From IMG/VR virus record IMGVR_UViG_2721755721_000001: 64,000 nt of DNA, one strand, 5' to 3'. The notes beneath the pieces were generated by a model, which was given only the letters and a program-made list of their open reading frames with translations, did not search any database and had not been told where the DNA came from. The position numbers were made by a program, and so were the translations under genes. This stretch comes from a virus. Its lineage: Duplodnaviria; Heunggongvirae; Uroviricota; Caudoviricetes. Shown piece by piece: positions 1,263-64,000 of the stretch (positions are counted from its first letter, which is position 1; each line of letters begins with the position of its first letter).

Positions 1263-1285
1263 CTCAGGCCAGCCAGGGAAAAGGT

Positions 1286-1311: not shown

Positions 1312-1333
1312 ATTACGTGGGCGTTTTTTCTAA

Positions 1334-1615
1334 TCAGACAGGAATCTGCTGACGGCTTGACAGTTTTGACGCGGAGCCATAGCGATTGAGCGTTTGCTGT
1401 TGTTTTACCGGGGGGTGTGATTTGTCTGGTTCCTGTTCATTGCGCCGGGGTTTCATGATTATCTTATCCACACTCTCCAGTGCCGTAAATGTGCAGGAAC
1501 ATTCCAGATTCTGGCACTGATACCACGAGCGTTTAACTGACGGAGCTTCATAGGCTGCTGTTCTGGCGTGTGCAACTGTACCGCATTCCGGACATTTAAG
1601 TGCCATTAAAATCAC
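1334..1615 (-). CDS. ogr: Ogr/Delta-family zinc-finger late transcription activator
   Basis: motifs CPECG...HART...YQCQNLECSCTF...ESV...KP match P2 Ogr / P4 Delta as recalled; true start may be internal Met at 1606. Confidence 0.8.
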   Translation of the reverse strand: MILMALKCPECGTVAHARTAAYEAPSVKRSWYQCQNLECSCTFTALESVDKIIMKPRRNEQEPDKSHPPVKQQQTLNRYGSASKLSSRQQIPV

Positions 1616-2163
1616 TCCTGTATATCGTTAATGTCATTCAGGCGTTGCTGAAAATGCAGATGTTGTGCCGGGGTGTAAGAGTCCTGGCAATCACGAATCA
1701 TCCCGGGGTCAGGTATCAAACCGGATTCATCCAGGATCTCACGATAATCCCCGGCAATTTCAGGCGGTGTTATTGCCAGCTGGCGAACCAGAGCACTGCG
1801 TAATATACGGGACGCAACGTCAACCCCTCCGCGCCCCTTCAGGAACGGAGCCAGTGCAGATGTCAGGGCTGCCCCATTCGCCTGCATAAAATTGCTGAGA
1901 GCGGCTTCTGTGCAGGCCTCCATCAGTAAATGCTGCGCGTAAATGCATTCGCGCGCAGCACAGTTAATTTGCCATTTCAGCACATCCAGACGTTCCCGCA
2001 GTAATTCGAGCTGTCGGGCATAATCTGCTGGTTTTTCTGTGGCAGCGAGGAGAGATGTTATCTGTTGTTCAACGGCTTTTCGGCTCTCACTATGTCCGGC
2101 CCACAGAATACGGGCATTCCGAAAACTGGTAAGTGCCTGGTCAGGCGTGCCTCGGGCCGTCAT
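1612..2163 (-). CDS. hypothetical helical protein, 183 aa (Psu-like by size/position only)
   Basis: ORF translationally coupled between upstream 247-aa ORF and ogr; no motif recognised. Confidence 0.45.
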   Translation of the reverse strand: MTARGTPDQALTSFRNARILWAGHSESRKAVEQQITSLLAATEKPADYARQLELLRERLDVLKWQINCAARECIYAQHLLMEACTEAALSNFMQANGAALTSALAPFLKGRGGVDVASRILRSALVRQLAITPPEIAGDYREILDESGLIPDPGMIRDCQDSYTPAQHLHFQQRLNDINDIQE

Positions 2164-2903
2164 ACTGCTTTCTCCTTCTCAGCGAGTTCCTGACGAACCT
2201 TAATTTTATGCATAGCTGCCGGAGAGAGTTGATTACTGAAATCCAGACGCGCCGCATAATCCGGGGCAACTCCCGCCAGTTTAAACACCGGGTCCTGCTC
2301 AGGCATCGCATCGTTAGCCAGAGCCGGTCTGGTGATATGTTTATGAATAAAGTCTTTCAGCACTGTGTCCGGGTCATTAACTGAATTCACCACACCCACA
2401 ACGGCACTGGCTTCCCGGCCCATTGTGGATTTAAGCAGGCTCAGCGTCTGAATAAGCGCTTTTCCATGCGACTGCATAAAATCCTCCCAGATTTGTTTTG
2501 CGCGAATATCCACAAGAATGTTATGCGCGTGGATATACTTTCCGGCTAATTCTGCAGCTTTCTGCGGCAAAAGTGCATTTTCGCTTTCCTGAGCCGCCAG
2601 CAGCTCATCAAAATCCTCAAGCGTTTCTCGTCCCAGCGCAATTTCCGTGCGCAGTTTTTTCATTTCCTTTGAGACCACGCCCTGACTTTCACGAAACAGC
2701 GTGCGCCACTCCTCATTCAGTGTGTTCGTCGTGGCTTCCATTTCAGCGCGACGCTGGCGGATTGTCGCAATATTATCCGCTGCCGCTTTCTGCTGACGAC
2801 GTGCTTCAAGCCATGCGTTTCTGGCTGTGTTCATGGTTTCCAGTGCCCGCTGCGTTACAGCCGGAAAAGTGGAAAGGTTGTTATTTACTGCGGTATTGTT
2901 CAT
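2160..2903 (-). CDS. hypothetical coiled-coil protein, 247 aa (Sid-like by size/position only)
   Basis: ORF downstream of iteron/promoter region and primase; predicted helical/coiled-coil; no motif recognised. Confidence 0.45.
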   Translation of the reverse strand: MNNTAVNNNLSTFPAVTQRALETMNTARNAWLEARRQQKAAADNIATIRQRRAEMEATTNTLNEEWRTLFRESQGVVSKEMKKLRTEIALGRETLEDFDELLAAQESENALLPQKAAELAGKYIHAHNILVDIRAKQIWEDFMQSHGKALIQTLSLLKSTMGREASAVVGVVNSVNDPDTVLKDFIHKHITRPALANDAMPEQDPVFKLAGVAPDYAARLDFSNQLSPAAMHKIKVRQELAEKEKAV

Positions 2904-2941
2904 GACTTCTCCTGTCGGGTTGGTTCGTTACGTCAATTGTG

Positions 2942-3269
2942 TCGTGGCTGACACAAGCACACTATCGGTGCTCAGTGTGTGGTGGCTGGCACAACGGGCG
3001 CTTGCGGTTATTCAGACGTGGCTATGAAAGCCAGCCAGATAAAAATGCCCTCTGTTTCAGTCTGCTTTATGTCCCTGATGCGGTGGAACAGGTGAAACAT
3101 GTGTTACAGCTTTGTTTTATAAGGCATTTATATACACTGCACCGGTGGAACATCGCGGGTAACAAGGTGAAACAGCGGATTGGCTGGCGTTACATCTGTT
3201 CCACCTCACTATTTCAGAAGGTGGAACAGGTTCAGCCCTGTAAAATACGGTTGTTCCACCTGTTTCACC
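2942..3269. repeat. iteron cluster resembling P4 ori/crr-type repeats
   Basis: GGTGGAACAGGTGAAACA at 3083-3100; GGTGGAACA at 3144 and 3220; GGTGAAACA at 3166; inverted copies TGTTCCACC at 3197 and 3252 and TGTTTCACC at 3261; GTGGCTGNCACAA at 2942 and 2981. Confidence 0.55.
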
Positions 3270-3303
3270 TGTTACCCTTAATAAATAAGACTCACGCAAA
3301 GCC

Positions 3304-5976: not shown

Positions 5977-6356
5977 ACTTCCCCCTCATACAACGTCACA
6001 CCGGTACTGCAGAAGTCATCAAATGCCGCCGGAAGCGTGCGGTACATCTCCGCCATCACTTCACAGCCGCGCGCGGTCAGTACCGGCGGCGCGGTCAGCA
6101 GTGACGGCTCCAGCATGTCAGTCAGCAGTGCCAGCGCGGCAGCGGCGCCCTGCACTTCGCCGTACTCGTTAATCAGTACGCACTCGATATGCAGCGCAAT
6201 GGCCATTTCAATACGCTCCACCGTCAGGCTGTGCGGACCATACTGATCACTGCCAGTTTCGTTCAGCATTTTCTGCCGCCATGCTGAAGCAATAGCCCGC
6301 CGGTAAAGCGCGGTGGTCATTTCTACCGGGAAAATGGAAACCTGCGGCTGGTTCAT
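5973..6356 (-). CDS. hypothetical protein, 127 aa
   Basis: ORF overlapping primase start by 4 nt in satellite early operon. Confidence 0.45.
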   Translation of the reverse strand: MNQPQVSIFPVEMTTALYRRAIASAWRQKMLNETGSDQYGPHSLTVERIEMAIALHIECVLINEYGEVQGAAAALALLTDMLEPSLLTAPPVLTARGCEVMAEMYRTLPAAFDDFCSTGVTLYEGEV

Positions 6357-6637
6357 CTGGCACCTCCTTCAATCAGTGCGCAGCTGTGTGCAATATCCGT
6401 CAAATCTGCCAGCAGGTACTCCATCAGCGCGGCGACACCAGGCGCACAGCCTGCGTCCAGTGCTCCGGCCTGAGACGGGTATTCAGAAAAGAGAAGCTGG
6501 AGCATGTCGCAGGCATTTCTTGCGCGGGTCAGCTTTCCGAAACTGTCCTCTGACAACCCATAGGCAAAAGCACCGGTATTGTGTTTTTCAGGCAAAGTGT
6601 GGCCCTGAGCACCGTTGTGCCCGTTTGAAATATTCAT
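6353..6637 (-). CDS. hypothetical protein, 94 aa
   Basis: ORF translationally coupled within the same operon. Confidence 0.4.
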   Translation of the reverse strand: MNISNGHNGAQGHTLPEKHNTGAFAYGLSEDSFGKLTRARNACDMLQLLFSEYPSQAGALDAGCAPGVAALMEYLLADLTDIAHSCALIEGGAR

Positions 6638-6668
6638 CGTGGATTACTCCGTTTTCAGCGGTATTTTG

Positions 6669-7058
6669 TCAGAGAAACTTTGAATAGTGACCGTCGTCAG
6701 GCTCAGCAGAACGCCGTATGCTACGCTCCCGCCAGCGGATAAATAGCACAGACGGATGCAGTGTCAGCGGGCCGGAACCACTACCGCCAGCAGGAGCTGG
6801 TGCAGGCTTCAAGAGCGGTACATCAAACAGGCGCGTATACCGCTGTTCAAACCATGCCAGAGGGCAGGAAGAAAGCTTGTTGTCGCTGTCATGACGTATC
6901 AGCACTTCACAGCTGAATTCAGGATTAACCAGCGCCACAGAGGGCGAGGCTTCTATTAATCGGATAATCGTGACCGTCCAGCCACGTTCATGCTGCCAGC
7001 GTTCGCCGGGGTGCGGATAATTACGCATGTTCACCTCCGCAGGGAATGCGCCCGGCAA
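6669..7058 (-). CDS. hypothetical protein, 129 aa (start uncertain)
   Basis: ORF in satellite early operon; alternative internal start MRNYPHP. Confidence 0.4.
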   Translation of the reverse strand: MPGAFPAEVNMRNYPHPGERWQHERGWTVTIIRLIEASPSVALVNPEFSCEVLIRHDSDNKLSSCPLAWFEQRYTRLFDVPLLKPAPAPAGGSGSGPLTLHPSVLFIRWRERSIRRSAEPDDGHYSKFL

Positions 7059-7251
7059 AGCTCAGTACATAGTCCGGGGCAAGTCTGCGCCGCGCTGATC
7101 GTTCGTTATCTGCGGTGATCCTTAACATCACAGGACGGGCATTGCGTTGACTGCGGTTGATCGCCGCAAATAACCAGGTACACTTCTGTTTAGCCATCTT
7201 CGTTACCTCATATAACGTGCTGGTCAGACGCCTCGGTGCTGCTGCAAACAC
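7021..7251 (-). CDS. hypothetical small basic protein (likely starts at MAKQKC, position 7197)
   Basis: ORF immediately downstream of the palindromic operator region. Confidence 0.35.
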   Translation of the reverse strand: MFAAAPRRLTSTLYEVTKMAKQKCTWLFAAINRSQRNARPVMLRITADNERSARRRLAPDYVLSFAGRIPCGGEHA

Positions 7252-7279
7252 TCCGGGGCGTTGCTATTTTGTTTTTCTG

Positions 7280-7300
7280 TGTGTAATGTGTCATTACACA
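7280..7300. promoter_or_regulatory. perfect 9-3-9 palindrome TGTGTAATG-TGT-CATTACACA, putative operator
   Basis: located 14 bp upstream of the plus-strand RHH-like ORF and upstream of the minus-strand primase operon; ATTACA...TGTAAT half-sites recur at 7308-7326. Confidence 0.5.
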
Positions 7301-7313
7301 TAAATACATTACA

Positions 7314-7508
7314 ATGGGTGTAATTGACGTGTCAACACACAAAAATGAAAGACGTGGGAATCCGCCATTCCAGTTCCGACTTGACCCTGAACTGCGTGAA
7401 CTGATGGAACAAGCACAACAGCAGGATGGCGATGAATCGCTAGCGGCTTGGATCAAGCGCATTCTACGCAAAGAGTTACAAAGCCGAGGTTTAGAACCAA
7501 AGAATTGA
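7314..7508 (+). CDS. putative ribbon-helix-helix DNA-binding protein, 64 aa
   Basis: FQFRLDPELRELMEQA...SLAAWIKRILRKEL fits strand-helix-helix pattern; only plus-strand gene in the module; followed by hairpin GGGGAG-loop-CTCCCC at 7517-7540. Confidence 0.45.
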   Translation: MGVIDVSTHKNERRGNPPFQFRLDPELRELMEQAQQQDGDESLAAWIKRILRKELQSRGLEPKN

Positions 7509-7557
7509 TTAATACGTTGGGGAGGCTTTTTTCTCCCCAGCTTTGTTAATATTGTCA

Positions 7558-7773
7558 TTACACTACTTCCTCCAATCCTGCTGATTGAGCTTTAACCCAC
7601 TGCCTAATTTCTTGTGCATCGTAAACAGATACCCGTTTTGAAATGCGTATAGATTTGGGAAATTCAGGATTGTTCTTTTCCCAGCGCCAGAGAGTAACCG
7701 TACTTATTTGCAAAAAGTCAGCAGTAGCTCGTGGGCGGGCATGTCCAGTGATAGGATAAGTTTTTAATGTCAT
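7558..7773 (-). CDS. alpA: AlpA-family helix-turn-helix regulator
   Basis: 71 aa with AlpA-like pattern (LQISTVTLWRWEKNNPEFP...VYDAQEIRQW). Confidence 0.7.
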   Translation of the reverse strand: MTLKTYPITGHARPRATADFLQISTVTLWRWEKNNPEFPKSIRISKRVSVYDAQEIRQWVKAQSAGLEEVV

Positions 7774-7875
7774 GAAATTACCTGCCGTATTATGTAATGA
7801 ACACGGCAGATACTATGGGGATATCAAAATGCTGTGAAGGTAGTGTAATCAACTCTACCTGTAGATTGTTTCAGT

Positions 7876-8757
7876 CTACCCCTTTTGTTTTAATCCCGCA
7901 TGATTAACCGCTAATCGTAATTTTCTTAAGATTTCTTGTTCATTAGTGATAAATATTGGAGGTAGCTCTCCTAAATGTTTAATTATGGCGTTAGTCCACT
8001 TTTCAGGACTTATCTCTTTTCTTTCACCACGACATTCGCTTGGGTATTTTGCTAATATATATATGGCTGCATTTAATAACCCCTCCCTATTTTTTGCATG
8101 ATGCTCAGCAGTGTTATTTAATCGCTTGGGGATTTTAGGTTCAGATGAAATTCTTTTCGTAAGTAAACTTGGCATAGGAATTCCAGTTTTTACTGATTTC
8201 CATATTAACTCTAAATCTCTTCGCATGATAAGAAGATCTTCAAATGGAATCTTAATTACCTTATTTCCTTCATATGAGGCCGTTGCCATCAAAACATTAT
8301 CTCGTATTTTTACCGGTTTAAGCCTGAATTCATAATCTGGATCTATAGCTAATCCATTTTTTATGTCACTTATCATATCATCGGCGTACCAAATACCACA
8401 GGCAAATCCTATAATTTGAAGCCCATTTTCAAAATGTTCAAAGGAATCATCTTTAAGGTCATACCATATTGTTGAAAATTCCATCTCTAGTGATTGATTA
8501 GTTAATACGGGATGAATTAAGTCAATTTCCATTTTCTGATTTTTATTGAGGAAATTAACATTAAATCTAACTGCAAGTCCATCCGCCTTGAATGCGATAT
8601 TAAAAGCGCCTATTTCGTATAGATGTAATAAATCATCAATCTCGCATTCTAATAGTCTTGAAGCGCGTTCAAATGAACAATATTCTAATGGTGGTATTTT
8701 TTTGTCAATCCATAGATTTCCTAAGAATATAGTTTCATTCTCTGTTGAATGCTGCAT
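7876..8757 (-). CDS. hypothetical protein, 293 aa; AT-rich cargo between int and alpA
   Basis: complete ORF starting 30 bp after the int stop; GC well below flanking genes; no family recognised. Confidence 0.6.
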   Translation of the reverse strand: MQHSTENETIFLGNLWIDKKIPPLEYCSFERASRLLECEIDDLLHLYEIGAFNIAFKADGLAVRFNVNFLNKNQKMEIDLIHPVLTNQSLEMEFSTIWYDLKDDSFEHFENGLQIIGFACGIWYADDMISDIKNGLAIDPDYEFRLKPVKIRDNVLMATASYEGNKVIKIPFEDLLIMRRDLELIWKSVKTGIPMPSLLTKRISSEPKIPKRLNNTAEHHAKNREGLLNAAIYILAKYPSECRGERKEISPEKWTNAIIKHLGELPPIFITNEQEILRKLRLAVNHAGLKQKG

Positions 8758-8787
8758 TATGACCTCTGTTTTAAATTATAAGAGTAT

Positions 8788-10122
8788 TTAATTGATAATG
8801 TTAATACCTGATAAGTCATAAGGAGCATGGAATTCGTCCTTATTTAGTTCCAGATAATTAGACCACCATTGCATCATTCTGCGGCGTTCCTGCATGTGCT
8901 GCGCAAGATGCACATATGCTGCCCGCACTTCGTTTCTTTCTTGGTGACTCATCTGCCGTTCAACTGCATCGCGTGACCAGAGTCCTGATTCGGTCAGTGC
9001 AGAGCAGGCCATCGCCCTGAACCCATGCAAGCAAACATCAGTTTGAGTGTCGTAACCCATCGTTCGCAGTGCTTTATTAACTGTGTTTTCGCTCATCGGT
9101 TTATATGGGTTGCTGTCACCGGGAAAAACCAGCAGATATTCACCACTGATTTTCCTTATATCCTCCAGTACCCCGATAGCCTGACTAGATAGCGGGACAT
9201 AATGAGCAGCCCCCATCTTTGCACCCCGATCTGAGAATTTAACCCCTGCGATCTCTTCACGTTGTCCTGGTATCGTCCATAGCCCATTTTCAATGTCGAT
9301 CTCCTCCCATCTGGCATGTCGTAGTTCGCTGGATCGCACAAAAGTGTGCAGGGAAAAGAGAACTGCTAGGCGAGTCAATGGTCTTCCCGTGTAACTTCTC
9401 GTTTTCGCTAACAGTTCAGGTAAACGTTCGAGAGGTAGTGCGGGGCGATGTCGTACTTTGGGGGCCGTAATTGCACCTTTTAGATCGTGGGCAGGGTTGT
9501 AATCGACAATTCCACGTTGCACGGCATAACGGAAGATGCTCGTCATAGTGGTTTTTACACGGCTCGTTGTGGCACCAATTCCTTTCTCAGTCATCTCAAC
9601 CAGCATCGGCATCAAGTCACGGGTTTTGAGCGTATCGATAGGCTTTGAACCGATGGCAGGAAAGAGGTGGTTTTCCATTTCTCGGAGAATTTTTTTACGG
9701 GTGATCTCTTTCCACTCAGGATGCCCCATCGTTCCACTATGCCACTCTCTGGCAACACTCTCGAACGTGGGGGAAATTGGGTCTTCCTTTTTGGGTTTCT
9801 TTGCTTCGCGAGGATCACGACCATCGGCTAGTAGTTGCCTGGCTTCATCACGCCGTTTCCGCGCTGTTGCAAGTGAGACATCTGGGTAGACCCCTAATGC
9901 CAATGTCACTTGTTTTCCATCAAAACGATAATTCATACGCCAGTATTTTCCACCAGTCTTTCGTACCAGTAGATACAAACTCCCTCCATCGGTAAGTTTG
10001 TAATCATTGGTCTTCGGCTTGGCGTTTTCTATCTGTTTGGGGGAAAGCACATTAATGGCCATATCTGTACTCATTTTGGTAAATTGATGGTATCTGCATA
10101 TCGAACTGGGGAATACCATCAC
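8788..10122 (-). CDS. int: tyrosine integrase, P4-type
   Basis: 444 aa; N-terminal arm-binding-like region (LTDGGSLYLLVRKTGGKYWRMNYRFDGK); C-terminal catalytic region with HGFRAMACSAL and late Tyr. Confidence 0.9.
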   Translation of the reverse strand: MMVFPSSICRYHQFTKMSTDMAINVLSPKQIENAKPKTNDYKLTDGGSLYLLVRKTGGKYWRMNYRFDGKQVTLALGVYPDVSLATARKRRDEARQLLADGRDPREAKKPKKEDPISPTFESVAREWHSGTMGHPEWKEITRKKILREMENHLFPAIGSKPIDTLKTRDLMPMLVEMTEKGIGATTSRVKTTMTSIFRYAVQRGIVDYNPAHDLKGAITAPKVRHRPALPLERLPELLAKTRSYTGRPLTRLAVLFSLHTFVRSSELRHARWEEIDIENGLWTIPGQREEIAGVKFSDRGAKMGAAHYVPLSSQAIGVLEDIRKISGEYLLVFPGDSNPYKPMSENTVNKALRTMGYDTQTDVCLHGFRAMACSALTESGLWSRDAVERQMSHQERNEVRAAYVHLAQHMQERRRMMQWWSNYLELNKDEFHAPYDLSGINIIN

Positions 10123-10334
10123 TTATACCATCACGAGGTTGTAATGTCATGAAATTAACTGAAATGAAAATCAGGCCGATTCGGTGATAACTTACTGTTT
10201 TTTTAAGTGGTTATGTAATGAAGTGAAATGTAGAGAAAGGTCTTTAAAGTGTCCCCTGCAGACATCTACTTGAGGCAGCAGGGGATTGATTGGAATGGTG
10301 TTTTTTAGGTGTGAGAAATATTTTACCCGCTATT

Positions 10335-10535
10335 TTACCCATTGGCGCGGCTTAAGAGCTTATTTTTGAATTCACAATGGTCACGATATAACCATCTTGC
10401 TCGACCGTGGATAACTTTGGCTTTTGGCAGGTCGCCGGACTTAATCCGGTCGTAGATGAAGGTTTTACCAAAGCCAGTATCGGCCATGATGAATTTCAAA
10501 TCAACCAGTGAATCAGGTTGTAGTTCGTGTTGCAT
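10335..10535 (-). CDS. AlpA/Xis-family excisionase-like HTH protein
   Basis: 66 aa, FIMADTGFGKTFIYDRIKSGDLPKAKVIHGRARWLYRD pattern; immediately upstream of int. Confidence 0.6.
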   Translation of the reverse strand: MQHELQPDSLVDLKFIMADTGFGKTFIYDRIKSGDLPKAKVIHGRARWLYRDHCEFKNKLLSRANG

Positions 10536-10577
10536 GAGTGCTATCTCCGAATAGGGAATCGAACCTGCAAATCAGGC

Positions 10578-10600
10578 AAGAAAAAACCGCCATCAGGCGG
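10578..10600 (-). terminator. intrinsic terminator between early-left genes and xis-like gene
   Basis: minus strand CCGCC-TGAT-GGCGG then TTTTTTCTT. Confidence 0.55.
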
Positions 10601-10666
10601 CTTGGTGTTCTTTCAGTTCTTCAATTCGAATATTGGTTACATTGTTTTCATATATGAATAAATAAA

Positions 10667-10879
10667 TTAGCTTTTTTCGTTGCCTTCGCGTTCTTTATTA
10701 ATTTTGACAAAATCGTTTTTACCACGCTCTCCAAATGCGTCTTTAGAGTCGTTGTATCCGCAATCGCAGCACACATAATCATCAGACCATCCACGCATTG
10801 TTTTTTCTTTTGCAATATTTCCAGAACCGCATTTTGGACAAGACATATCACTACCTCCAAAGCATGAGAGAGATGACAA
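10667..10879 (-). CDS. small zinc-ribbon protein
   Basis: CPKCGSG...CCDCGY four-Cys motif; start may be internal MSCPKCG. Confidence 0.5.
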   Translation of the reverse strand: MSSLSCFGGSDMSCPKCGSGNIAKEKTMRGWSDDYVCCDCGYNDSKDAFGERGKNDFVKINKEREGNEKS

Positions 10880-10942
10880 CGTAACATTGATTGGAGATTA
10901 ACAATAGATTGCTGATGTAAAAGATATGTATAAGCTTAGCTA

Positions 10943-11317
10943 TCAAAGGGGAGGCTCTGGTAGCGGCATCCAGTGTGACGGTTTCCACGACGCACCAGGA
11001 ATTATCCACCCATCATTAGCGTCAGGATGCCCCGGGATGTAAGTCGCCCATTTCATTCGCCAGTCACCTTTCCTGTCAAACTCCCTGGCAACAAGAACGG
11101 CTGTTTTGGTATCCGGCATTCGCTCACTACAGCTTATCCAACCATCAGGAGTTACCGGAGAGTTGCCGGGTTCTTTAATGTGCAAGCGAGGCTCACCATC
11201 TTTTGGCTCAGGCCACTGGCGCTCCATGTTGATCTTCAATTTATCTTCCATAGCAGCGGTAATTTCAGCATCGCTGATGCCAGCACGGCGCTGTGCATCC
11301 CACAACAGGAAATGCAT
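10943..11317 (-). CDS. DUF551-like phage protein
   Basis: Trp-rich C-terminal pattern as recalled for DUF551; in frame with the upstream ORF across a TAG. Confidence 0.5.
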   Translation of the reverse strand: MHFLLWDAQRRAGISDAEITAAMEDKLKINMERQWPEPKDGEPRLHIKEPGNSPVTPDGWISCSERMPDTKTAVLVAREFDRKGDWRMKWATYIPGHPDANDGWIIPGASWKPSHWMPLPEPPL

Positions 11318-11326
11318 ATCAGCCCA

Positions 11327-11572
11327 CTAGCTGAGATCGTCTGGTTCGGCTGCGGCTTCCAGAGCCTCTTTTGAGAGGTGTTTCAGTGGACCAATGGGGC
11401 CAACGCAGCCAAATGTGGAGTCAGACCATTTGGCATGCTCGTGGCGAATCAGTTCGCGTTCCAGTGATGCCAGTGCAATTCGTGCCAGTTCCATTTGTTC
11501 GCCACGAGTAAGCCCGTTTTCAAGCGGATTTTTAATGAACAATTCAATACGTTCTTTGGTAATAGTGGTCAT
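11327..11572 (-). CDS. hypothetical protein, 81 aa (possibly N-terminal part of a gene interrupted by an amber codon)
   Basis: ORF ends at TAG 11327-11329; same frame continues 9 nt later into the DUF551 ORF. Confidence 0.4.
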   Translation of the reverse strand: MTTITKERIELFIKNPLENGLTRGEQMELARIALASLERELIRHEHAKWSDSTFGCVGPIGPLKHLSKEALEAAAEPDDLS

Positions 11573-11582
11573 TTGTTAGTCC

Positions 11583-12338
11583 TTAAACTGCTAGTTGCAA
11601 TTGCATTTCAAAGCGGTCGCGTTGTTCACAATACGCAAGAGAACCAGGGCTATTGTGTGCCTCAATCCGTTCTACCATTAATGCTGCGCGTGTCTCTTTA
11701 CTTGCAGGTGCATAAGCCCCAGACCAGGCTTTATCAATACCGATGTTTCGAGCGACGTTCGTACTATCTGCGCTGGCTAAGGGTAATTTTGTGAATATCA
11801 GCGGATTTAACATGCGCAATCCATGTAGTTTCGTAACCGGCTGACCATGCCCATCAACAATGTGACGAATCAGGTCTTTCATTCTGGCTACCGCAAGAGT
11901 TGGGCGCTTTACGTCATAGTCGCCACAACTACCGATAGCCACTCGCGGAAACTCATTGCACAAATGAATAAATCGCGCGTCACTTTCATTCATGTGCCAC
12001 ACTGGAACGCCAGCTAGTTTTCCGTGAGGCCACTCATTCAGAAGCGCATCATTTTCCTCCTCTCCGCCATCAATAATATCCGGGATAATGGCAAAATCGA
12101 ATCCTGGGTGATTCTTCCAGCGAGCAACAAACTCGTAGTAATCGCTCCAGTCGATTTTGTTTTTGCCAGCTGCTTTCCAGGCGGTGAATGCACCGTTGTC
12201 CAGCGCGAACGACTGACAGTATTCAGCCGCGAGATTGATCTGGCCTGAATGCGCAAAACTGATAAACGCATGTCGCCCTTTCCATGCTCTCATTGCGCAC
12301 GTATCAGGAGTAATAGGCCCACCGTGGTAGTGAATCAT
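11583..12338 (-). CDS. conserved hypothetical early-left protein, about 251 aa
   Basis: ORF; likely start MIHYHGGPITP at 12338; family not recognised. Confidence 0.5.
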   Translation of the reverse strand: MIHYHGGPITPDTCAMRAWKGRHAFISFAHSGQINLAAEYCQSFALDNGAFTAWKAAGKNKIDWSDYYEFVARWKNHPGFDFAIIPDIIDGGEEENDALLNEWPHGKLAGVPVWHMNESDARFIHLCNEFPRVAIGSCGDYDVKRPTLAVARMKDLIRHIVDGHGQPVTKLHGLRMLNPLIFTKLPLASADSTNVARNIGIDKAWSGAYAPASKETRAALMVERIEAHNSPGSLAYCEQRDRFEMQLQLAV

Positions 12339-12339
12339 C

Positions 12340-12747
12340 TCACTCTCCTTTGATGCGAATGCCAGTAGCGCGGATTGCATCGATGACTTCAGAAACTTTG
12401 TATGCCATTACCGTTTGGTAATCATCGTGAAAATCTGTTCGATGAAGCATGCTGCTACGTTCCGGGAGCAGTATTTCCCGCGCTTCCAGTTCTGCAATGC
12501 GCTTTTTTGCTGCTTCCAGTTCATCCAGTAATTCCAGCACGGTAGCCGGATTAGCCTTGGCAACAAAATCCCGGACTGGCTTACAATCAATCTCCGCAAT
12601 GGGTTGATACGATGTGTAGCCATGCTGTCTTGTATAACTACCGTGACGAATAACGAAAAAATCACCATTTATTTTTTTAGCCTGCCACTTATCTTCACCG
12701 GCTTTCTCTGCCGCTTCACGCAGTGCCTGAGAGTTAATTTCGCTCAC
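12340..12747 (-). CDS. Ead/Ea22-like protein
   Basis: PATVLELLDELEAAKKRIAELEA coiled-coil motif typical of Ead/Ea22-like proteins as recalled. Confidence 0.5.
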   Translation of the reverse strand: MSEINSQALREAAEKAGEDKWQAKKINGDFFVIRHGSYTRQHGYTSYQPIAEIDCKPVRDFVAKANPATVLELLDELEAAKKRIAELEAREILLPERSSMLHRTDFHDDYQTVMAYKVSEVIDAIRATGIRIKGE

Positions 12748-12965
12748 TTCGAACCTCTCTGTTTACTGATAAGCTCCAGATCCTCCTGGCAACTTGCACA
12801 AGTCCGACAACCCTGAACGGCCAAGCGTCTTCGTTCATCTATCGGATCGCCACACTCACAACAATGAGTGGCAGATATAGCCTGGTGGTTCAGGCGGCGC
12901 ATTTTTATTGCTGTGCTGCGCTGTAATTCTTCAATTTCTGATGCTGAATCAATGATGTCTGCCAT
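12744..12965 (-). CDS. TraR/DksA-type C4 zinc-finger protein
   Basis: CCECGDPI...CRTCASC motif. Confidence 0.6.
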   Translation of the reverse strand: MADIIDSASEIEELQRSTAIKMRRLNHQAISATHCCECGDPIDERRRLAVQGCRTCASCQEDLELISKQRGSK

Positions 12966-13063
12966 CTTTCATTAATCCCTGAATTGTTGGTTAATACGCT
13001 TGAGGGTAAATGCGAGCAATAAAAAAGGAGCCTGTAGCTCCCTGATAATTTTGTTTTTCATGT

Positions 13064-13345
13064 TCATCGTTCCTTAAAGACGCCGTTTAACATGCCGATT
13101 GCCAGGCTTAAATGAGTCGGTGTGAATCCCATCAGCGTTACCGTTTCGCGGTGCTTCTTCAGTACGCCACGGCAAATGTCATCGACGTTTTTATCCGGAA
13201 ACTGCTGTCTGGCTTTTTTGATTTCAGAATTAGCCTGACGGGCAATACTGCGAAGGGCGTTTTCTTGCTGAGGTGTCATTGAACAAGCCCCATGTCGGCA
13301 AGCATAAGCACACAGAATATGAAGCCCGCTGCCAGAAAAATGCAT
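13064..13345 (-). CDS. hypothetical protein
   Basis: ORF in early-left operon; start likely internal. Confidence 0.35.
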   Translation of the reverse strand: MHFSGSGLHILCAYACRHGACSMTPQQENALRSIARQANSEIKKARQQFPDKNVDDICRGVLKKHRETVTLMGFTPTHLSLAIGMLNGVFKER

Positions 13346-13355
13346 TCAGTGGTTG

Positions 13356-13547
13356 TCATACCTGGTCTCTCTCATCTGCTTCTGCTTTCGCCACCATCAT
13401 TTCCAGCTTTTGTGAAAGGGATGTGGCTAACGTATGAAATTCTTCGTCTGTTTCTACTGGTATTGGCACAAACCTGACTCCAATTTGAGCAAGGCTATGT
13501 GCCATCTCAATGCTCGTTCTTAACTCAACAGGAGATGCTTTGTGCAT
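13356..13547 (-). CDS. hypothetical small protein
   Basis: ORF in early-left operon. Confidence 0.35.
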   Translation of the reverse strand: MHKASPVELRTSIEMAHSLAQIGVRFVPIPVETDEEFHTLATSLSQKLEMMVAKAEADERDQV

Positions 13548-13708
13548 ACAGCCCCTCGTTTATTATTTATCTCCTCAGCCAGCCGCTGGGCTTTCAGTGG
13601 ATTTTGGATAACAGAAAGGTCGGGAAATACCCAGCCTCGCTTTGTAACGGAGTAGACGAAAGTGATCGCACCTACCCGGATATTATCGTGAGGATGCTTC
13701 ATCGCCAT
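13520..13708 (-). CDS. hypothetical small protein
   Basis: ORF directly upstream of exo. Confidence 0.35.
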
Positions 13709-14379
13709 TGCTCCCCAAATACAAAACCAATTTCAGCCAGTGCCTCGTCCATTTTTTCGATGAACTCCGGCACCATCTCGTCAAAACCCGCCATGTACTT
13801 TTCATCCCGCTCAACCACGACATAATGCAGTCCTTCACGCTTCATACGCGGGTCATAGTTGGCAAAGTACCAGGCATCTTTTCGCGTCACCCACATGCTG
13901 TACTGCACCTGGGCCATGTAAGCTGACTTTATGGCCTCGAAACCACCGAGCCGGAACTTCATGAAATCCCGGGAGGTAAACGGGCATTTCAGTTCAAGGC
14001 CGTTGCCGTCACTGCATAAACCATCTGGAGAGCAGGCGGTACGCATACTTTCGTCGCGATAGATGATCGGTGATTCAGTAACATTCACGCCGGAAGTGAA
14101 CTCAAACAGGGCTCTGGCGTCGTTCTCGTACTGTTTTCCCCAGGCCAGCGCTTTAGCGTTAACTTCCGGAGCCACACCGGTGCAAACCTCAGCAAGCAGG
14201 GTGTGGAAGTAGGACATTTTCATGTCAGGCCACTTTTTTCCGGAGCGGGGTTTTGCTATTACGTTATGAACTTCTGAAGCTGTGATGACGCCGAGCCGTA
14301 ATTTGTGCCACGCATCATCCCCCTGTTCGACAGCTCTCACGTCGATCCCGGTACGCTGCAGGATAATGTCCGGTGTCAT
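13699..14379 (-). CDS. exo: lambda exonuclease (Red alpha)
   Basis: 226 aa, near-identical to lambda Exo as recalled ([40 protein letters not shown]...). Confidence 0.95.
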
Positions 14380-15161
14380 GCTGCCACCTTCTGCTCAGTG
14401 GCTTTCTGTTTCAGGAATCCAAGAGCTTTCACTGCTTCGGCCTGTGTCAGTTCTGACGATGCGCGAATGTCGCGGCGAAATATCTGGGAACAGAGCGGCA
14501 ATAAGTCGTCATCCCATGTTTTATCCAGGGCGATTAGCAGAGTGTTAATCTCCTGCATGGTTTCATCGTTAACCGGAGTGATGTCGCGTTCCGGCTGGCG
14601 TTCTGCAGTGTATGCAGTATTTTCGACAATGCGCTCGGCTTCATCCTTGTCATAGATACCAGCAAATCCGAAGGCCAGACGGGCACACTGAATCATGGCT
14701 TTATGCCGTAACATCCGTTTAGGATGCGACTGCCACGGCCCCGTGATTTCTCTGCCTTCGCGAGTTTTGAATGGTTCGCGGCGGCATTCATCCATCCATT
14801 CGGTAACGCAGATCGGATGATTACGGTCCTTGCGGTAAATCCGGCATGTACAGGATTCATTGTCCTGCTCAAAGTCCATGCCATCAAACTGCTGGTTTTC
14901 ATTGATGATGCGGGACCAGCCATCAACGCCCACCACCGGAACGATGCCGTTCTGCTTATCAGGGAAGGCGTAAATTTCTTTCGTCCACGGATTAAGGCCG
15001 TACTGGTTGGCGACGATCAACAATGCGATGAACTGCGCATCGCTGGCATCGCCTTTAAATGCCGTCTGGCGAAGAGTGGCGATCAGTTCCTGTGGGTCGA
15101 CAGAATCCATGCCGACACGTTCAGCCAGCTTCCCTGCCAGCGTTGCGAGTGCTGTACTCAT
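14376..15161 (-). CDS. bet: lambda Bet single-strand annealing protein (Red beta)
   Basis: 261 aa, near-identical to lambda Bet as recalled. Confidence 0.95.
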
Positions 15162-15185
15162 CCGTTTTATACCTCTGAATCAATA

Positions 15186-15584
15186 TCAACCTGGATGGTG
15201 AGCAATGGTTTCAACCATGTACCGGATGTGTTCTGCCATGCGCTCCTGAAACTCAACATCGTCATCAAACGCACGGGTAATGGCTTTTTTGCTGGCCCCG
15301 TGGCGTTGCAAATGATCGATGCATAGCGATTCAAACAGGTGCTGGGGCAGGCCTTTTTCCATGTCGTCTGCCAGTTCTGCCTCTTTCTCTTCACGGGCGA
15401 TCTGCTGGTAGTGACGCGCCCAGCTCTGAGCCTCAAGACGATCCTGAATGTAATAAGCGTTCATGGCTGAACTCCTGAAATAGCTGTGAAAATATCGCCC
15501 GCGAAATGCCAGGCTGATTAGGAAAACAGGAAAGGGGGTTAGTGAATGCTTTTGCTTGATCTCAGTTTCAGCATTAATATCCAT
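15186..15584 (-). CDS. gam: lambda Gam (RecBCD inhibitor) with altered C-terminus
   Basis: near-identical to lambda Gam up to ...ETIAHH, then PG-stop instead of QVDIDSEV; 1-nt insertion in a GG run near 15193 explains it. Confidence 0.85.
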
Positions 15585-15682
15585 TTTTTATAAGCGTCGA
15601 CGGCTTCACGAAACATCTTTTCATCGCCAATAAAAGTGGCGATAGTGAATTTAGTCTGGATAGCCATAAGTGTTTGATCCAT
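15539..15682 (-). CDS. kil: Kil host-killing protein
   Basis: 47 aa [47 protein letters not shown] matches lambda Kil. Confidence 0.85.
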
Positions 15683-15815
15683 TCTTTGGGACTCCTGGCT
15701 GATTAAGTATGTCGATAAGGCGTTTCCATCCGTCACGTAATTTACGGGTGATTCGTTCAAGTAAAGATTCGGAAGGGCAGCCAGCAACAGGCCACCCTGC
15801 AATGGCATATTGCAT
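15651..15815 (-). CDS. cIII: cIII (FtsH inhibitor)
   Basis: 54 aa [54 protein letters not shown] matches lambda cIII. Confidence 0.9.
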   Translation of the reverse strand: MQYAIAGWPVAGCPSESLLERITRKLRDGWKRLIDILNQPGVPKNGSNTYGYPD

Positions 15816-15887
15816 GGTGTGCTCCTTATTTATACATAACGAAAAACGCCTCGAGTGAAGCGTTATTGGTATGCGGTAAAGCCGCAC

Positions 15888-16256
15888 TCAGGCGGCCTTG
15901 ATAGTCATATCATCTGAATCAAATATTCCTGATGTATCGATATCGGTAATTCTTATTCCTTCGCTACCATCCATTGGAGGCCATCCTTCCTGACCATTTC
16001 CATCATTCCAGTCGAACTCACACACAACACCATATGCATTTAAGTCGCTTGAAATTGCTATAAGCAGAGCATGTTGCGCCAGCATGATTAATACAGCATT
16101 TAATACAGAGCCGTGTTTATTGAGTCGGTATTCAGAGTCTGACCAGAAATTATTAATCTGGTGAAGTTTTTCCTCTGTCATTACGTCATGGTCGATTTCA
16201 ATTTCTATTGATGCTTTCCAGTCGTAATCAATGATGTATTTTTTGATGTTTGACAT
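15888..16256 (-). CDS. ea10: Ea10-like early protein
   Basis: 122 aa, same size and position as lambda Ea10. Confidence 0.7.
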   Translation of the reverse strand: MSNIKKYIIDYDWKASIEIEIDHDVMTEEKLHQINNFWSDSEYRLNKHGSVLNAVLIMLAQHALLIAISSDLNAYGVVCEFDWNDGNGQEGWPPMDGSEGIRITDIDTSGIFDSDDMTIKAA

Positions 16257-16436
16257 CTGTTCATATCCTCATAGATAAAAAATCGCCCTCACACTGGAGG
16301 GCAAAGAAGATTTCCAATAATCAGAACAAGTCGGCTCCTGTTTAGTTACGAGCGACATTGCTCCGTGTATTCACTCGTTGGAATGAATACACAGTGCTGT
16401 GTTTATTCTGTTGTTTATGCCAAAAATAAAGGCCGA

Positions 16437-17060
16437 CTATGCGGCCTCGGAAGGAAGTCCAATCATCTTATTCAAATCTTCTACCCGTAAAGCAGGAAGT
16501 GCTGTACTTGCTTTATCTGCTTCTTTTGGTAGCAATTCTTTGCTTTCAGGCCAAACTTCAATAAGTCGCTTAACTGTTGTTACTGAGTTCAAAGCAGCCC
16601 ATACATTTGATTCGATATCCTTTTTCCTGGCTTCAAGTTTTTGTTGCAATGCGCAGATTTCATCAAACCTTTTTGTTATTTCGTGTTCTGCGTTAAACAT
16701 GCATTTATCTCTGTTAGGAGTAGGGAGCAATATATCTTCGCCGTTACCGTCTTTTCCATATGAATACCAGCCAACCCTTCTGCCAGATACAGTCAGATAA
16801 ATTGAAGTAGAACGAACATCGTATGAGTAAAATGAACATCCCATCTTTTCAAGTTCTTCACTTATAGCCATTAATCTGGATGATAACTGATCCACTTCTT
16901 CAGTTTTCTTTTTACCGCCAAACGCAACAACTCTGGCGTCAAGTGCAAGCCGGTTCTTTAACTTTGTTACTTCTTCAAGTTCGGTGAAAACCCCGGACTT
17001 AATTAAAGCGTTACGAGCGATATCCTCTTTCATTCTCGTAGTTAAGCGGATTGATGACAT
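16437..17060 (-). CDS. hypothetical protein, about 207 aa, in the ral/sieB slot downstream of N
   Basis: ORF; ATG at 17058-17060 with RBS GAGAGG is preferred over the TTG at 17120; no TM segment; no family recognised. Confidence 0.55.
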   Translation of the reverse strand: MSSIRLTTRMKEDIARNALIKSGVFTELEEVTKLKNRLALDARVVAFGGKKKTEEVDQLSSRLMAISEELEKMGCSFYSYDVRSTSIYLTVSGRRVGWYSYGKDGNGEDILLPTPNRDKCMFNAEHEITKRFDEICALQQKLEARKKDIESNVWAALNSVTTVKRLIEVWPESKELLPKEADKASTALPALRVEDLNKMIGLPSEAA

Positions 17061-17121
17061 ATTAATTCCTCTCAAATAAGTGGTTTGCTGCCTGATTTCA
17101 TTTTCTGGTGACCAACACAAG

Positions 17122-17505
17122 TCATCTTGCTGTCAGTTGTTTTGATTTCCGGTAGCCTGCCGCGTAAATGGCTACGTTTGGAAGACATACACCAGTTTCT
17201 GGTTGCTTATGTCCAAACTCATTCGCGTACACAATGGCCGCTCGCTCCAGATTGCGTCTGTATTCTTTCTGTTGCCAGATCACGTCCTGTGCCATGAACT
17301 TAATTGGCTTAGCGTCTTCTATGCGCTCAGGCGTTTCGTGAGTACCTTTAGCCTGAATCTGCGCTCTGCTTAGAGTAGGGCGGTGTAATACTTCTGAACT
17401 TATTGCTTCTTCGCGGGCCAGTACGCCGTTAGCTAATGCCTTTGCCTTTAAACGCTCACGACGACGAGAACGTGAATTGCCTTTGAACTGAGTTCTGCGT
17501 GTCAT
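17122..17505 (-). CDS. N: N-like antitermination protein
   Basis: Arg-rich N-terminal motif GNSRSRRRERLKAKA resembling the lambda N ARM; first gene leftward of the pL region. Confidence 0.7.
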   Translation of the reverse strand: MTRRTQFKGNSRSRRRERLKAKALANGVLAREEAISSEVLHRPTLSRAQIQAKGTHETPERIEDAKPIKFMAQDVIWQQKEYRRNLERAAIVYANEFGHKQPETGVCLPNVAIYAAGYRKSKQLTAR

Positions 17506-17761
17506 ATAGACCTCCTGATGAACTTTGGTGGTGTGGTAGGTGGGAGACCCATTTCGACCTGTTTCGGCCTACTTCAATTCGGCAATAGTCCCGCAGGCCT
17601 CGCCGCTTTACGTGCGACATATTCCCGTCCATGAACCCTTCACCACACCCCAAAGTTCACTTTGGTTATTGCGCTTTGTCAGCGCCGTAGATTCATATTC
17701 GAATCGTTGTATATTCACCGCCCTGGTGAGTAATGCGTCCTGCTGACGACGATAATAATGA

Positions 17762-17794
17762 ACCAATAGTTCGACATTATTAAGAACTATTGGT
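17762..17794. promoter_or_regulatory. 33-bp palindrome (11-bp perfect arms ACCAATAGTTC / GAACTATTGGT, 11-bp spacer) in the pL/oL region
   Basis: perfect inverted repeat between N and the rex-slot gene. Confidence 0.4.
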
Positions 17795-17969
17795 ACGAAT
17801 TTTGGTGATTTATTAACTCTACGAAGTATGATTCTGATATATAAGGAAATTTATTTTTGAAAATGTGGCTGATGAAGGTTATGCGGCAGGGATCATAACT
17901 GCATGGTTTAGCGAGTTACATCAACAAATACAATTGGTTATGGTGTTTTTAGGTGGGGGATCGAGAGGC

Positions 17970-17995
17970 AAAGAAAACCCGGCTCGGTGGCCGGG
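17970..17995 (-). terminator. intrinsic terminator after the rex-slot gene
   Basis: minus strand CCCGGCCACCGAGCCGGG then TTTTCTT, 14 nt past the ORF stop. Confidence 0.55.
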
Positions 17996-18008
17996 GTTAG
18001 ATTTTCTG

Positions 18009-19034
18009 TTATGGGCGAGTGATGGTTGATGCGTTTCCGTTTTCTATTACACCTGCTCGTATCGTGTAGCTTCCCAAGATTTTTACTGTCCTGTTTTCTT
18101 TCATTGCATCAAACAGTATGGCGATCTCGTCTTTATCATCTATGAACGACGTGTCCACCGAAACAGGGAAACTGTCTTCACTAGATGGTTCGCGGCAGCT
18201 TAGGGTTATCTTTTCCGCAGTACGCTTGATTCCATCAATGACTAATTCAAGGTTTCTTTCTTCTTTTTTTGCTTTTTCGATAGGGTTCTTGATTAGTTCG
18301 TGGATTTCTTTGTTAGACAGTTCAACTGTGCTTGCGCCTGATATGACAATTTTGTCAGCATCAGACGCGCCTTTTAATACCCCTGTATACGCTTTTGCAG
18401 TATGCTCTTGAATCCCTTCGGCGCGCTCTACTGCATCTATGCCCGCTTTAGCTCTAATCGCCTCAAGCATTCCGTCCCTTAATATCGTCATGCGCTCGTT
18501 TTCTGATTTAATCTTGGCTTCTTCGAGCTTTGTTTCTTCTTGCTTGACTTCTACTTCGGCTTTTTTCTCTAAGTATGATGTACCAACCCATGCACCGCCT
18601 ATAACGGTGACAGCAAACAAGAAGCATAATGTTTTTTGGCTAGGACTCATACCGTGTGTTACCTTCTCAAAGGCTTTACCGAATGCTTCAAAAAGCTTTG
18701 TTAATGCAGCAAGTATATCAGTACAACCTTCATTAATGGTAAAGATGATCTCTGCTTCCTCTTTATCTTTACCAGTTAACCTTTGAAGGTTGTCAGTTTT
18801 ATATTTTATTAGTGTGAAAACTTTATAAATTTCAGTCTGAAATTCGCATAAACCCTGAGCTAGAGGAGATGGAAGCGTTCCGTTGTAGCGAGAAGGATCA
18901 CCATAAATCTTAAAATTCACATTATTGAAGAGGTCTAACTTGATCCTGTCGATAGTGATCTCTTCGCCACCATCTAACCTTGCAAACAAAGATTCAATGT
19001 CGTCCAGACTTGAAACATTAATAATATCTTTCAT
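18009..19034 (-). CDS. hypothetical protein, 341 aa, one central TM helix; occupies the rexAB position
   Basis: complete AT-rich ORF between cI and pL; hydrophobic TLCFLFAVTVIGGAWVGTSYL; TATAAT (minus, 19065-19070) upstream; no family recognised. Confidence 0.6.
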   Translation of the reverse strand: MKDIINVSSLDDIESLFARLDGGEEITIDRIKLDLFNNVNFKIYGDPSRYNGTLPSPLAQGLCEFQTEIYKVFTLIKYKTDNLQRLTGKDKEEAEIIFTINEGCTDILAALTKLFEAFGKAFEKVTHGMSPSQKTLCFLFAVTVIGGAWVGTSYLEKKAEVEVKQEETKLEEAKIKSENERMTILRDGMLEAIRAKAGIDAVERAEGIQEHTAKAYTGVLKGASDADKIVISGASTVELSNKEIHELIKNPIEKAKKEERNLELVIDGIKRTAEKITLSCREPSSEDSFPVSVDTSFIDDKDEIAILFDAMKENRTVKILGSYTIRAGVIENGNASTITRP

Positions 19035-19114
19035 TACAACACCTTCGGCACAACCTTGCTAGTTAAATTAGTGATTATAAAAATTGGATACTTACCAGCT
19101 ATGTGACGATGAAG

Positions 19115-19822
19115 TCACGAACTTTTCAGCCACTCCCTTGCCTCGATGTCATCCAGATGGCGAGATTGCTTCAGAATACCAGCTACATACTCCACCTTTG
19201 CTACTTGATGATAAGGCAACGTTATAGGCCTGTGATCCTGGTTAATGCTTGTAAATTGGTATTCTCCATCTCTGTCATAGCCAAGAACCTTAATCATGTT
19301 GTGTCCTTCAACGGTTCTGACAAACACCTCATCACCCGGGAATACTTTGGTGTTAGGCTCAATGAGTACATATTCTCCTGATTTTATTCTGGGCCACATG
19401 CTGTCTCCTTTCACACGAAGACCAAAGGCATCTGGATCATCGCTATAAATTTTGAGCCACCCATCGCGCTCTTCGGTCATCTCGATGGCACCATCAACAC
19501 CAAGAATTGCCTCACCAACCACGCGCACTAACCCTTTTTTTAATTTGCCAACAAATGAAAGAGTATCTTCATCATTCGCTCCATTTAACGAAGTGCCGTG
19601 CTGAAGCCAAACAACATCAACGTTTAGAAATTTCGCAAGCGCATTCATTTTTTCCTGACGCGGTAAAGACTCAGCATTAAACCATTTGCTAACGCCTTTG
19701 GACGAAAGAGAAAGGGCACGGGCTATAGCCATTCCCCTACCATGTTCATCAAGACCAGCTTCTTTACAGGCTTGCGCTAGCCGCTGGGCGAATTCTTTGC
19801 GCACTTTTTCATTCTGAACCAT
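19115..19822 (-). CDS. cI: cI-type prophage repressor (HTH plus S24 LexA-like peptidase domain)
   Basis: 235 aa; N-terminal HTH region; C-terminal GDSMWPRIKSGEYVLIEPN and Lys motif typical of autocleaving repressors. Confidence 0.85.
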   Translation of the reverse strand: MVQNEKVRKEFAQRLAQACKEAGLDEHGRGMAIARALSLSSKGVSKWFNAESLPRQEKMNALAKFLNVDVVWLQHGTSLNGANDEDTLSFVGKLKKGLVRVVGEAILGVDGAIEMTEERDGWLKIYSDDPDAFGLRVKGDSMWPRIKSGEYVLIEPNTKVFPGDEVFVRTVEGHNMIKVLGYDRDGEYQFTSINQDHRPITLPYHQVAKVEYVAGILKQSRHLDDIEAREWLKSS

Positions 19823-34801: not shown

Positions 34802-34820
34802 CCCGTTGTAAAGTGAGGAT

Positions 34821-63314: not shown

Positions 63315-63377
63315 TGTTTAGCATAAGAACCCTACTACCTATTAGCGCCAGTGTATCAGTTCCGACAAAACAATCTC
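63315..63377 (+). pseudogene. 5' end of an ORF (MFSIRTLLPISASVSVPTKQS) interrupted by IS1
   Basis: ATG with RBS AAGAAAGAGG at 63315; reading frame runs into the IS1 left end after 21 codons. Confidence 0.3.
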
Positions 63378-64000
63378 GTAATGCTGCCAACTTACTGATT
63401 TAGTGTATGATGGTGATTTTAAGGTGCTTGCGTGGCTTCCATTTCCATCAGATGTCCTTCCTGCTCCGCTACTGAAGGCGTGGTGCGTAACGGCAAAAGC
63501 ACTGCCGGACATCAGCGCTATCTCTGCTCTCATTGCCGTAAAACATGGCAACTACAGTTCACTTACACCGCCTCTCAGCCCGGTACGCACCAGAAAATCA
63601 TTGATATGGCCATGAATGGCGTCGGATGTCGCGCCAGTGCACGCATTATGGGCGTTGGCCTCAACACGGTTTTACGTCACTTAAAAAACTCAGGCCGCAG
63701 TCGGTAACCTCGCGCATACAACCGGGCAGTGATGTGATTGTCTGCGCTGAAATGGGCGAACAGTGGGGCTACGTCGGTGCTAAATCACGTCATCGCTGGC
63801 TGTTTTACGCGTATGACAGGATACGGAGGACGGTTGTGGCGCACGTCTTCGGTGAACGCACTCTGGCCACACTGGAGCGTCTTCTGAGCCTGCTGTCGGC
63901 CTTTGAGGTCGTGGTATGGATGACGGATGGCTGGCCGCTGTATGAATCACGCCTGAAGGGAAAGCTGCACGTTATCAGCAAGCGTTACACTCAGCGCATT
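63378..64000 (+). mobile_element. IS1-family insertion sequence, left part (continues past window end)
   Basis: left end GTAATGCTGCCAACTTACTGATTTAGTGTATGATGGTG matches the IS1 terminal repeat as recalled; insA followed by insB-like frame. Confidence 0.9.
63432..63707 (+). CDS. insA: IS1 InsA
   Basis: 91 aa [45 protein letters not shown]..., about 95 percent identical to InsA as recalled. Confidence 0.9.

Follow-up and report, generated by a model that had tools for sequence, protein, structure and literature searches.

The presence of a single integrase gene at the meeting point of two mobile elements raises the question of which element owns it. In the 64,000-nucleotide (nt) stretch of tailed-phage DNA (Caudoviricetes) recorded as IMGVR_UViG_2721755721_000001, here called the window, a P4-type tyrosine integrase gene is followed by the genes of a small satellite and preceded, on the same strand, by an excisionase-like gene and a lambdoid early-left operon. 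A first-pass annotation of this DNA allowed three explanations, namely a tandem of prophage and satellite in which one integration module had been lost, an integrase shared between the two, or a composite element. It is suggested here that the locus very probably holds two independent integrative elements, a P4-like satellite and a lambdoid prophage, arranged in tandem at the tRNA gene argW. Each element has its own machinery, Int and AlpA in the satellite and IntS and TorI in the prophage, and nothing has been lost or shared. The arrangement is of an already known kind, and both element types and the hot spot for integration are known too.

The window is the reverse complement of positions 423804-487803 of CP010238.1, which it matches without mismatch (0 mismatches) over 10,849 nt at its left end and over 12,413 nt at its right end. 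To the right of the window, CP010238.1 continues with the rest of an IS1 element, a gene for an OspG/NleH-like kinase, an integrase gene (intS, at window-equivalent positions of about 65363-66520), tRNA-Arg(CCU) (argW, 66682-66756), yfdC, mlaA and fadL, so that intS and argW lie 1.4-2.8 kb beyond the window. This argW is a complete tRNA gene with a full 16-nt att (attachment) core (16/16), and is followed by yfdC. On the plus strand the order is therefore csc genes, distal att site of the satellite, satellite, hybrid core, torI and the rest of the prophage, intS, argW and yfdC, all genes of the junction region being on the minus strand. In total, the locus has three att copies derived from argW, together with two integrases and, in AlpA and TorI, two candidate excisionases. 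A second integrase, IntS, and att copies that delimit two independent elements are thus present, and the doubt over ownership expressed in the first-pass annotation is removed. That annotation had reported neither a tRNA nor an att repeat; the former is correct for the window, in which ARAGORN found no tRNA gene and tblastn no second integrase homologue, but an att core does lie at 10249-10261. Exact and fuzzy searches found a single copy of this core within the window because one partner lies 1.33 kb beyond the left end of the window and the other 2.7 kb beyond the right end.

The boundary between the elements is the hybrid core itself, between int and torI, and not within the interval 10540-10640, in which the first-pass annotation had proposed to look. 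Homology switches at this point; leftward the window matches satellite-only genomes, rightward it matches the attP arm of phage HK620 and the attR arm of Escherichia coli K-12, and the core is the sole overlap. It consists of 13 nt of the 16-nt core of the K-12 prophage KplE1 (CPS-53), the last 3 nt being replaced by the satellite arm, and it forms the right-hand part of the 21-nt identity block of the satellite. The core sits 73 nt downstream of the torI stop codon, and from it the window (10249-11000) is colinear with HK620 1371-2122 at 98% identity, the alignment starting inside the HK620 attP core (1368-1383). The alignment with the torI-attR region of K-12 stops at this junction point as well; at the other end of the prophage, the intS side of CP010238.1 follows HK620 1-1383 as far as that same attP core. 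The primer sequences in PMC3509656, from which the minimal extent of attR is inferred, indicate that the published 135-bp attR substrate for in vitro work has an arm starting in the last torI codons. The hybrid site retains the torI-side arm complete.

That the prophage should have its excisionase gene at one end and its integrase gene at the other is a property of the family to which its integration module belongs. Two copies of a 16-nt core, CTGCAGGGGACACCAT, delimit the KplE1 module, which has intS as the first gene, torI as the last and the intS promoter within attL, and the IntS/TorI module is conserved in HK620, Sf6, CUS-3 and many argW prophages (PMC2951348; PMC3509656). In the HK620 genome the ea genes, torI (1457-1657), the attP core and int (50-1207) follow one another on one strand. 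As attP in the KplE1/HK620/Sf6 family lies between xis and int, int and torI come to occupy opposite prophage ends after integration, and knowledge of this split settles the ownership of the integrase in the window. The prophage examined here shares with KplE1 an intS that adjoins argW in the orientation of the tRNA, and a torI at the opposite end; TorI is 100%, IntS 99%, the attR arm 98% and the attL region 97.5% identical to the K-12 counterparts. It differs in that the torI-side site of KplE1 is flanked by the dsdC-side chromosome, whereas here the flank is the satellite arm and the core is 13/16. Furthermore, the module here belongs to a lambda-like prophage of 56 kb, in contrast to the defective remnant KplE1 and the P22-like phages HK620 and Sf6.

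The excisionase-like gene seen by the first-pass annotation is present on the expected strand, but it is torI, and its assignment to the AlpA family was not borne out; TorI does not reach the threshold of Pfam Phage_AlpA, its sole match being to HTH_17 below threshold. The name torI is carried by the homologous gene in K-12, HK620 and the comparator genomes. The IntS of CP010238.1 is an intact protein of 385 aa with the Arm-DNA-bind_3, Phage_int_M and Phage_integrase domains, 99.0% identical to K-12 IntS and 97.7% to HK620 Int. The satellite Int has the same three Pfam domains and is 30% identical to IntS. The resemblance to phage lambda, in which the order attP-int-xis-ea-exo gives the same apparent gene order and strand as the window, arises because the satellite int occupies the place and strand that intS holds in the excised phage. 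The int and xis genes of lambda are neighbours with attP to one side of both, whereas here an att core separates int from torI and the two genes come from two elements.

That the integrase in the window is owned by the satellite follows from genomes in which the satellite is found on its own. Among 5,426 complete E. coli genomes, the collection to which all genome counts refer, 74 have the satellite int adjoining argW and yfdC without torI or a prophage at that place. Satellite-only genomes (H2-H7) match window 1-10261 at 99.6-100% (100% in H2), the match ending in each 12 nt inside the 3' end of tRNA-Arg; in NZ_CP148374 the tRNA-Arg gene and then yfdC follow. The tandem junction is present in 10 of the 5,426 genomes. 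Strain CUVET17-972 has the same satellite, core, torI, intS, argW and yfdC with a P22-like prophage, and many phages without a satellite likewise have TorI/IntS modules. No complete E. coli genome of the collection contains at least 80% of window 1-20000 or of 10262-33000.

The distal att site of the satellite was located by comparing two satellite genomes with different flanks (csc or dsdC), which diverge right after the tRNA copy. In CP010238.1 it lies at window-equivalent positions -1349 to -1329. In a genome with the dsdC context it is an intact 23-nt copy of the tRNA 3' end, TTCGATTCCTGCAGGGGACACCA, whereas in CP010238.1 and in every csc-context copy examined, alone or in tandem, one G is missing (CTGCAGGGACACCA). 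A repeat search on a satellite-only locus missed this site; the csc-context copies carry the 1-nt deletion.

The two integrases appear to use different sublocations of the same tRNA gene. The identity block of the satellite covers tRNA positions 54-74, beginning at the first base of the T-loop, and the repeat is likewise 21 nt in satellite-only genomes; the 16-nt core of the phage lies at the asymmetric 3' end of the tRNA. The annotated attP core of P4 also begins in the T-loop of its target-like sequence. According to a passage in bioRxiv 10.1101/2020.11.02.365908, citing Williams 2002, integrase subfamilies use either the symmetric anticodon-loop or T-loop or the asymmetric 3' end. The identity block ends at C74 (16242-16262 of the NZ_CP148374 locus; same sequence at window 10242-10261), so that satellite-only lysogens have CTT in place of the 3' CCA encoded by argW, and their tRNA is annotated as 72 nt and not 75 nt. 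Insertion of an IntS/TorI phage restores the encoded CCA at argW.

Table 1. Features of the window at and around the junction, with evidence for each.
Feature	Position	Strand	Evidence or remark
Distal cargo gene, 282 aa	1..849	-	Pfam and PADLOC without match
Ogr/Delta zinc finger	1334-1615	-	Pfam; 41% to P4 delta (tblastn)
Psu	1612-2163	-	Pfam Psu
Sid-like Psu-family protein	2160-2903	-	Pfam Psu
Alpha-type primase/helicase, 890 aa	3304..5976	-	Zn_Ribbon_Prim, Toprim_3, DUF927; 38% to P4 alpha N-terminus
DUF5375 gene, P4 ORF106 homologue	5973-6356	-	Upstream neighbour of primase gene
AlpA-family protein, presumed satellite excisionase/regulator, P4 Vis counterpart	7558..7773	-	PF05930, E = 1.6e-7
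Satellite cargo gene, 293 aa	7876..8757	-	Pfam and PADLOC without match; in all satellite copies examined
P4-type tyrosine integrase, 424 aa from annotated ATG	8788..10062	-	Longest open reading frame (ORF) to 10122
Int-proximal att arm (P' arm and int upstream region)	10063..10248	-	Identical to genomes where the arm adjoins argW directly
Hybrid att core, satellite/prophage boundary	10249..10261	-	GTGTCCCCTGCAG on plus strand, CTGCAGGGGACAC on minus strand; argW 3' end
TorI-side arm of prophage att (attR P arm)	10262..10334	-	98% identical to K-12 KplE1 attR and HK620 attP
torI, 66 aa, recombination directionality factor, last prophage gene	10335..10535	-	66/66 identity to PDB 1Z4H ('Tor inhibition protein')
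Phage-internal 16-mer identical to argW T-arm segment	10555..10570	-	GGAATCGAACCTGCAA; minus strand TTGCAGGTTCGATTCC
Terminator-like hairpin between early-left genes and torI	10584..10603	-	
Lambdoid early-left operon to cI-like repressor	10648..19822	-	DUF551, Ea22-like, exo (YqaJ), bet (RecT)
cIII thermoregulator RNA	15770-15828	-	Rfam
N	17122-17505	-	Early-left operon
cI-like repressor (S24/HTH)	19115-19822	-	Early-left operon
IS1, cut by window end, near prophage right end	63377..64000	+	Beyond: OspG/NleH-like kinase, intS, argW, yfdC

The three explanations put forward at first can be weighed against this evidence. If one integration module had been lost, the prophage would have been left without an integrase of its own, stranded beside the satellite, and the window, with one integrase homologue and no tRNA, has this appearance; the IS66 and IS1 insertions in the prophage also suggest some decay. 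The tandem arrangement in this proposal holds but the loss does not, as IntS is intact in CP010238.1 and 99% identical to the experimentally active K-12 enzyme, the attL region and the complete argW are in place just past the window, and the satellite retains both Int and AlpA, which makes the loss of a module highly improbable. A shared integrase would require that the P4-type Int directly downstream of torI serves satellite and prophage alike. The order torI, att, int does mimic that of excised HK620, no terminator-like site was seen between torI and int, and the two integrases have the same domain architecture and overlapping target segments in argW. However, the low identity between them, the cognate IntS of the prophage, the 74 genomes in which the same Int accompanies the satellite with no torI beside it, and the TorI/IntS modules of satellite-free phages leave sharing very unlikely. 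Arm-type sites are element-specific in the tyrosine-integrase family, which also counts against it. A composite element, in which satellite and prophage are fused and move as one by means of the outermost att copies, is scarcely credible. It can draw on the three directly repeated core copies, of which the outer pair could in principle recombine, and on a junction common to ten genomes, but the partner prophage varies (lambda-like here, P22-like in CUVET17-972), the satellite also occurs alone, and at the outer sites, where one arm is from the phage and the other from the satellite, neither integrase has both of its arms. The two elements together, at about 68 kb, would exceed the capacity of lambdoid and P4/P2 capsids, which is a further point against a composite.

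A fourth explanation accepts the same tandem and reverses its history, with the phage arriving first and the satellite then integrating into the torI-side att copy. Both orders of arrival would yield the observed junctions if the crossover fell within the shared 13 nt. The identity block of the satellite starts exactly at the T-loop, however, as does that of P4, and so points to a T-loop crossover, and the torI-side site has no T-loop (4/8 positions matching). A late satellite would also be expected at the genuine tRNA copy, beside the intS arm, and a synthetic query for this reciprocal junction, with the satellite distal arm beside the intS arm, was matched in 0 of the 5,426 genomes, which places the IntS/TorI phages on the tRNA side of this satellite in every case. 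In addition, the csc-context satellite is found with its 1-nt distal deletion both on its own and in the tandem, an indication that it is older than the phage. Prior arrival of the phage is thus unlikely, and it is probable that the satellite came first and that the phage then entered the tRNA-proximal att copy, provided that the satellite crossover takes place in the T-loop.

Several points weigh against the interpretation of two independent elements or against parts of it. The far-end IntS, argW and the distal att site are outside the 64-kb window and were placed through the identity of the window ends to CP010238.1. At the hybrid site the core is 13/16 nt and the outer flank is satellite DNA, so that excision by IntS and TorI from this site is a prediction. 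The 1-nt deletion in the distal att may impair excision of the satellite, which may thus be immobile whether or not the prophage is present. Arrival order is unreadable from the product itself, which has an identical sequence in either case. Few independent events probably lie behind the 10 tandem genomes. Finally, rearrangements do occur at this locus. In NZ_CP148579.1 (4463892-4530000) a lambdoid prophage begins at the satellite-torI junction but has its far end at ybhB-bioA, the attB region of lambda, and not at intS-argW. This implies a large rearrangement by recombination between prophages, and the genome was dropped as a comparator for the far end.

From the use of different sublocations of argW by the two integrases, an order of excision can be predicted. 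IntS, TorI and IHF would recombine the argW-side site with the hybrid core, and the prophage would be excised, leaving the satellite abutting argW as it does in the satellite-only genomes. Should the satellite Int cross over in the T-loop, as is typical of P4-type integrases, the prophage would separate the crossover site from the satellite arm, and excision of the satellite would be possible only after that of the prophage. It is tentatively proposed, as a rather doubtful extension, that the prophage locks the satellite in place until its own excision and that N-antiterminated read-through from pL switches on int, the cargo gene and alpA, so that release of the satellite is coupled to induction. 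Such read-through could occur because the phage early-left operon and torI immediately precede these three genes in the same orientation, and no terminator-like site separates torI from the satellite int. If true, this would give a fixed order of excision in which release of a satellite depends on induction of its neighbour.

The small element consists of window 1-10261 plus about 1.35 kb further to the left, some 11.6 kb altogether, which is the size of P4. The first-pass annotation gave the order of the P4-type integrase, the cargo gene that begins 30 bp downstream of it, alpA and the primase-like gene, and this is borne out by the ORFs and by Pfam. Its description of the element as resembling a phage-inducible chromosomal island (PICI) needs revision, as psu, sid-like and delta genes are present together with an alpha-type primase; on this gene content the element is a P4-like satellite and not a PICI. 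Aligned over 96% of its length, the satellite Int shares 52% identity with P4 Int; among the phage records searched, with the exception of one Salmonella genome contig included in them, no integrase is closer. The two Psu-family genes (1612-2903) are 29% and 25% identical to P4 psu by tblastn. No nucleotide match between P4 and the satellite was obtained by blastn, and no further search for a cos site or a P2 helper was made. By analogy with P4, the helper of the satellite would be expected to be a P2-like phage and not the neighbouring lambdoid prophage.

Comparison with related elements supports this placement. In common with P4, the satellite is bounded by direct repeats of a tRNA 3' end and has an alpha-type primase, psu, a sid-like gene, delta, AlpA/Vis, DUF5375 (ORF106) and, between AlpA and the DUF5375 gene, an icd-like region, and its identity block likewise begins in the T-loop. 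It differs from P4 in its target, which is argW and not leuX, and in its gene order, which runs int, cargo, alpA ... alpha, sid, psu, delta on one strand; the end of the identity block at C74 also sets it apart from P4-like satellites. Like a PICI, the element described here is small, has int, alpA and a primase gene and lies beside a prophage, but it carries the P4 hallmarks psu, sid-like and delta. The argW-dsdCXA region is a variable island of E. coli (Moritz and Welch 2006, as cited in PMC2808357). Tandem arrays of elements at one tRNA gene are known. In these arrays too the elements stand in series, each bounded by copies of the tRNA 3' end; here the two elements use different sublocations, T-loop and 3' end, and their repeats overlap partly.

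One further match to argW lies close to the junction and was considered as a candidate for it. A 16-mer, GGAATCGAACCTGCAA, 20 nt upstream of the torI start, equals the segment of argW that directly abuts the core in the tRNA, so that two pieces of the argW 3' half, contiguous in the tRNA gene, flank torI. This 16-mer was rejected as the junction because K-12 KplE1 and the HK620 phage genome contain it too, at the colinear position. The HK620 annotation assigns this stretch to a cII-dependent 'phage integration' promoter. Boundary calling by a naive search for direct repeats would mistake it for the junction and so place torI in the satellite. In the same way, prophage and satellite callers that pair the nearest integrase with the nearest xis would merge the two elements or set the wrong bounds for both.

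The cargo genes of the satellite remain without family matches. Neither the 293-aa nor the 282-aa product, both encoded by genes of low GC content, was matched in Pfam or PADLOC. P4-like satellites often carry anti-phage systems at the positions that these two genes hold. A 234-aa gene, which neighbours the 282-aa cargo gene in other copies of the satellite, is frameshifted in CP010238.1, immediately outside the left end of the window.

The prophage, of about 56 kb, is lambda-like, with an HK97-type head and a lambda-type tail. The lambdoid early-left operon that the first-pass annotation placed upstream of the integrase, on the same strand, was confirmed by DUF551, Ea22, exo, bet, the cIII thermoregulator, N and the repressor; the thermoregulator was the sole Rfam match in window 1-21000. 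IS1 sits after the tail-fibre genes, and the gene for the OspG/NleH-like kinase effector lies as cargo between IS1 and intS at the prophage end. An IS66-family element (ORFs at 33777-34454, 34454-34801 and 34821-36392) is flanked by two diverged copies of the lysis region within window 31529-38688. The two copies are repeated as 31529-32538 and 36423-37431 at 96% identity and as 32690-33606 and 37773-38688 at 87.5%, and the prophage carries two lysozyme genes. This duplication of diverged lysis regions, together with the two lysozyme genes, suggests that the prophage is a recombinant of two lambdoid phages.

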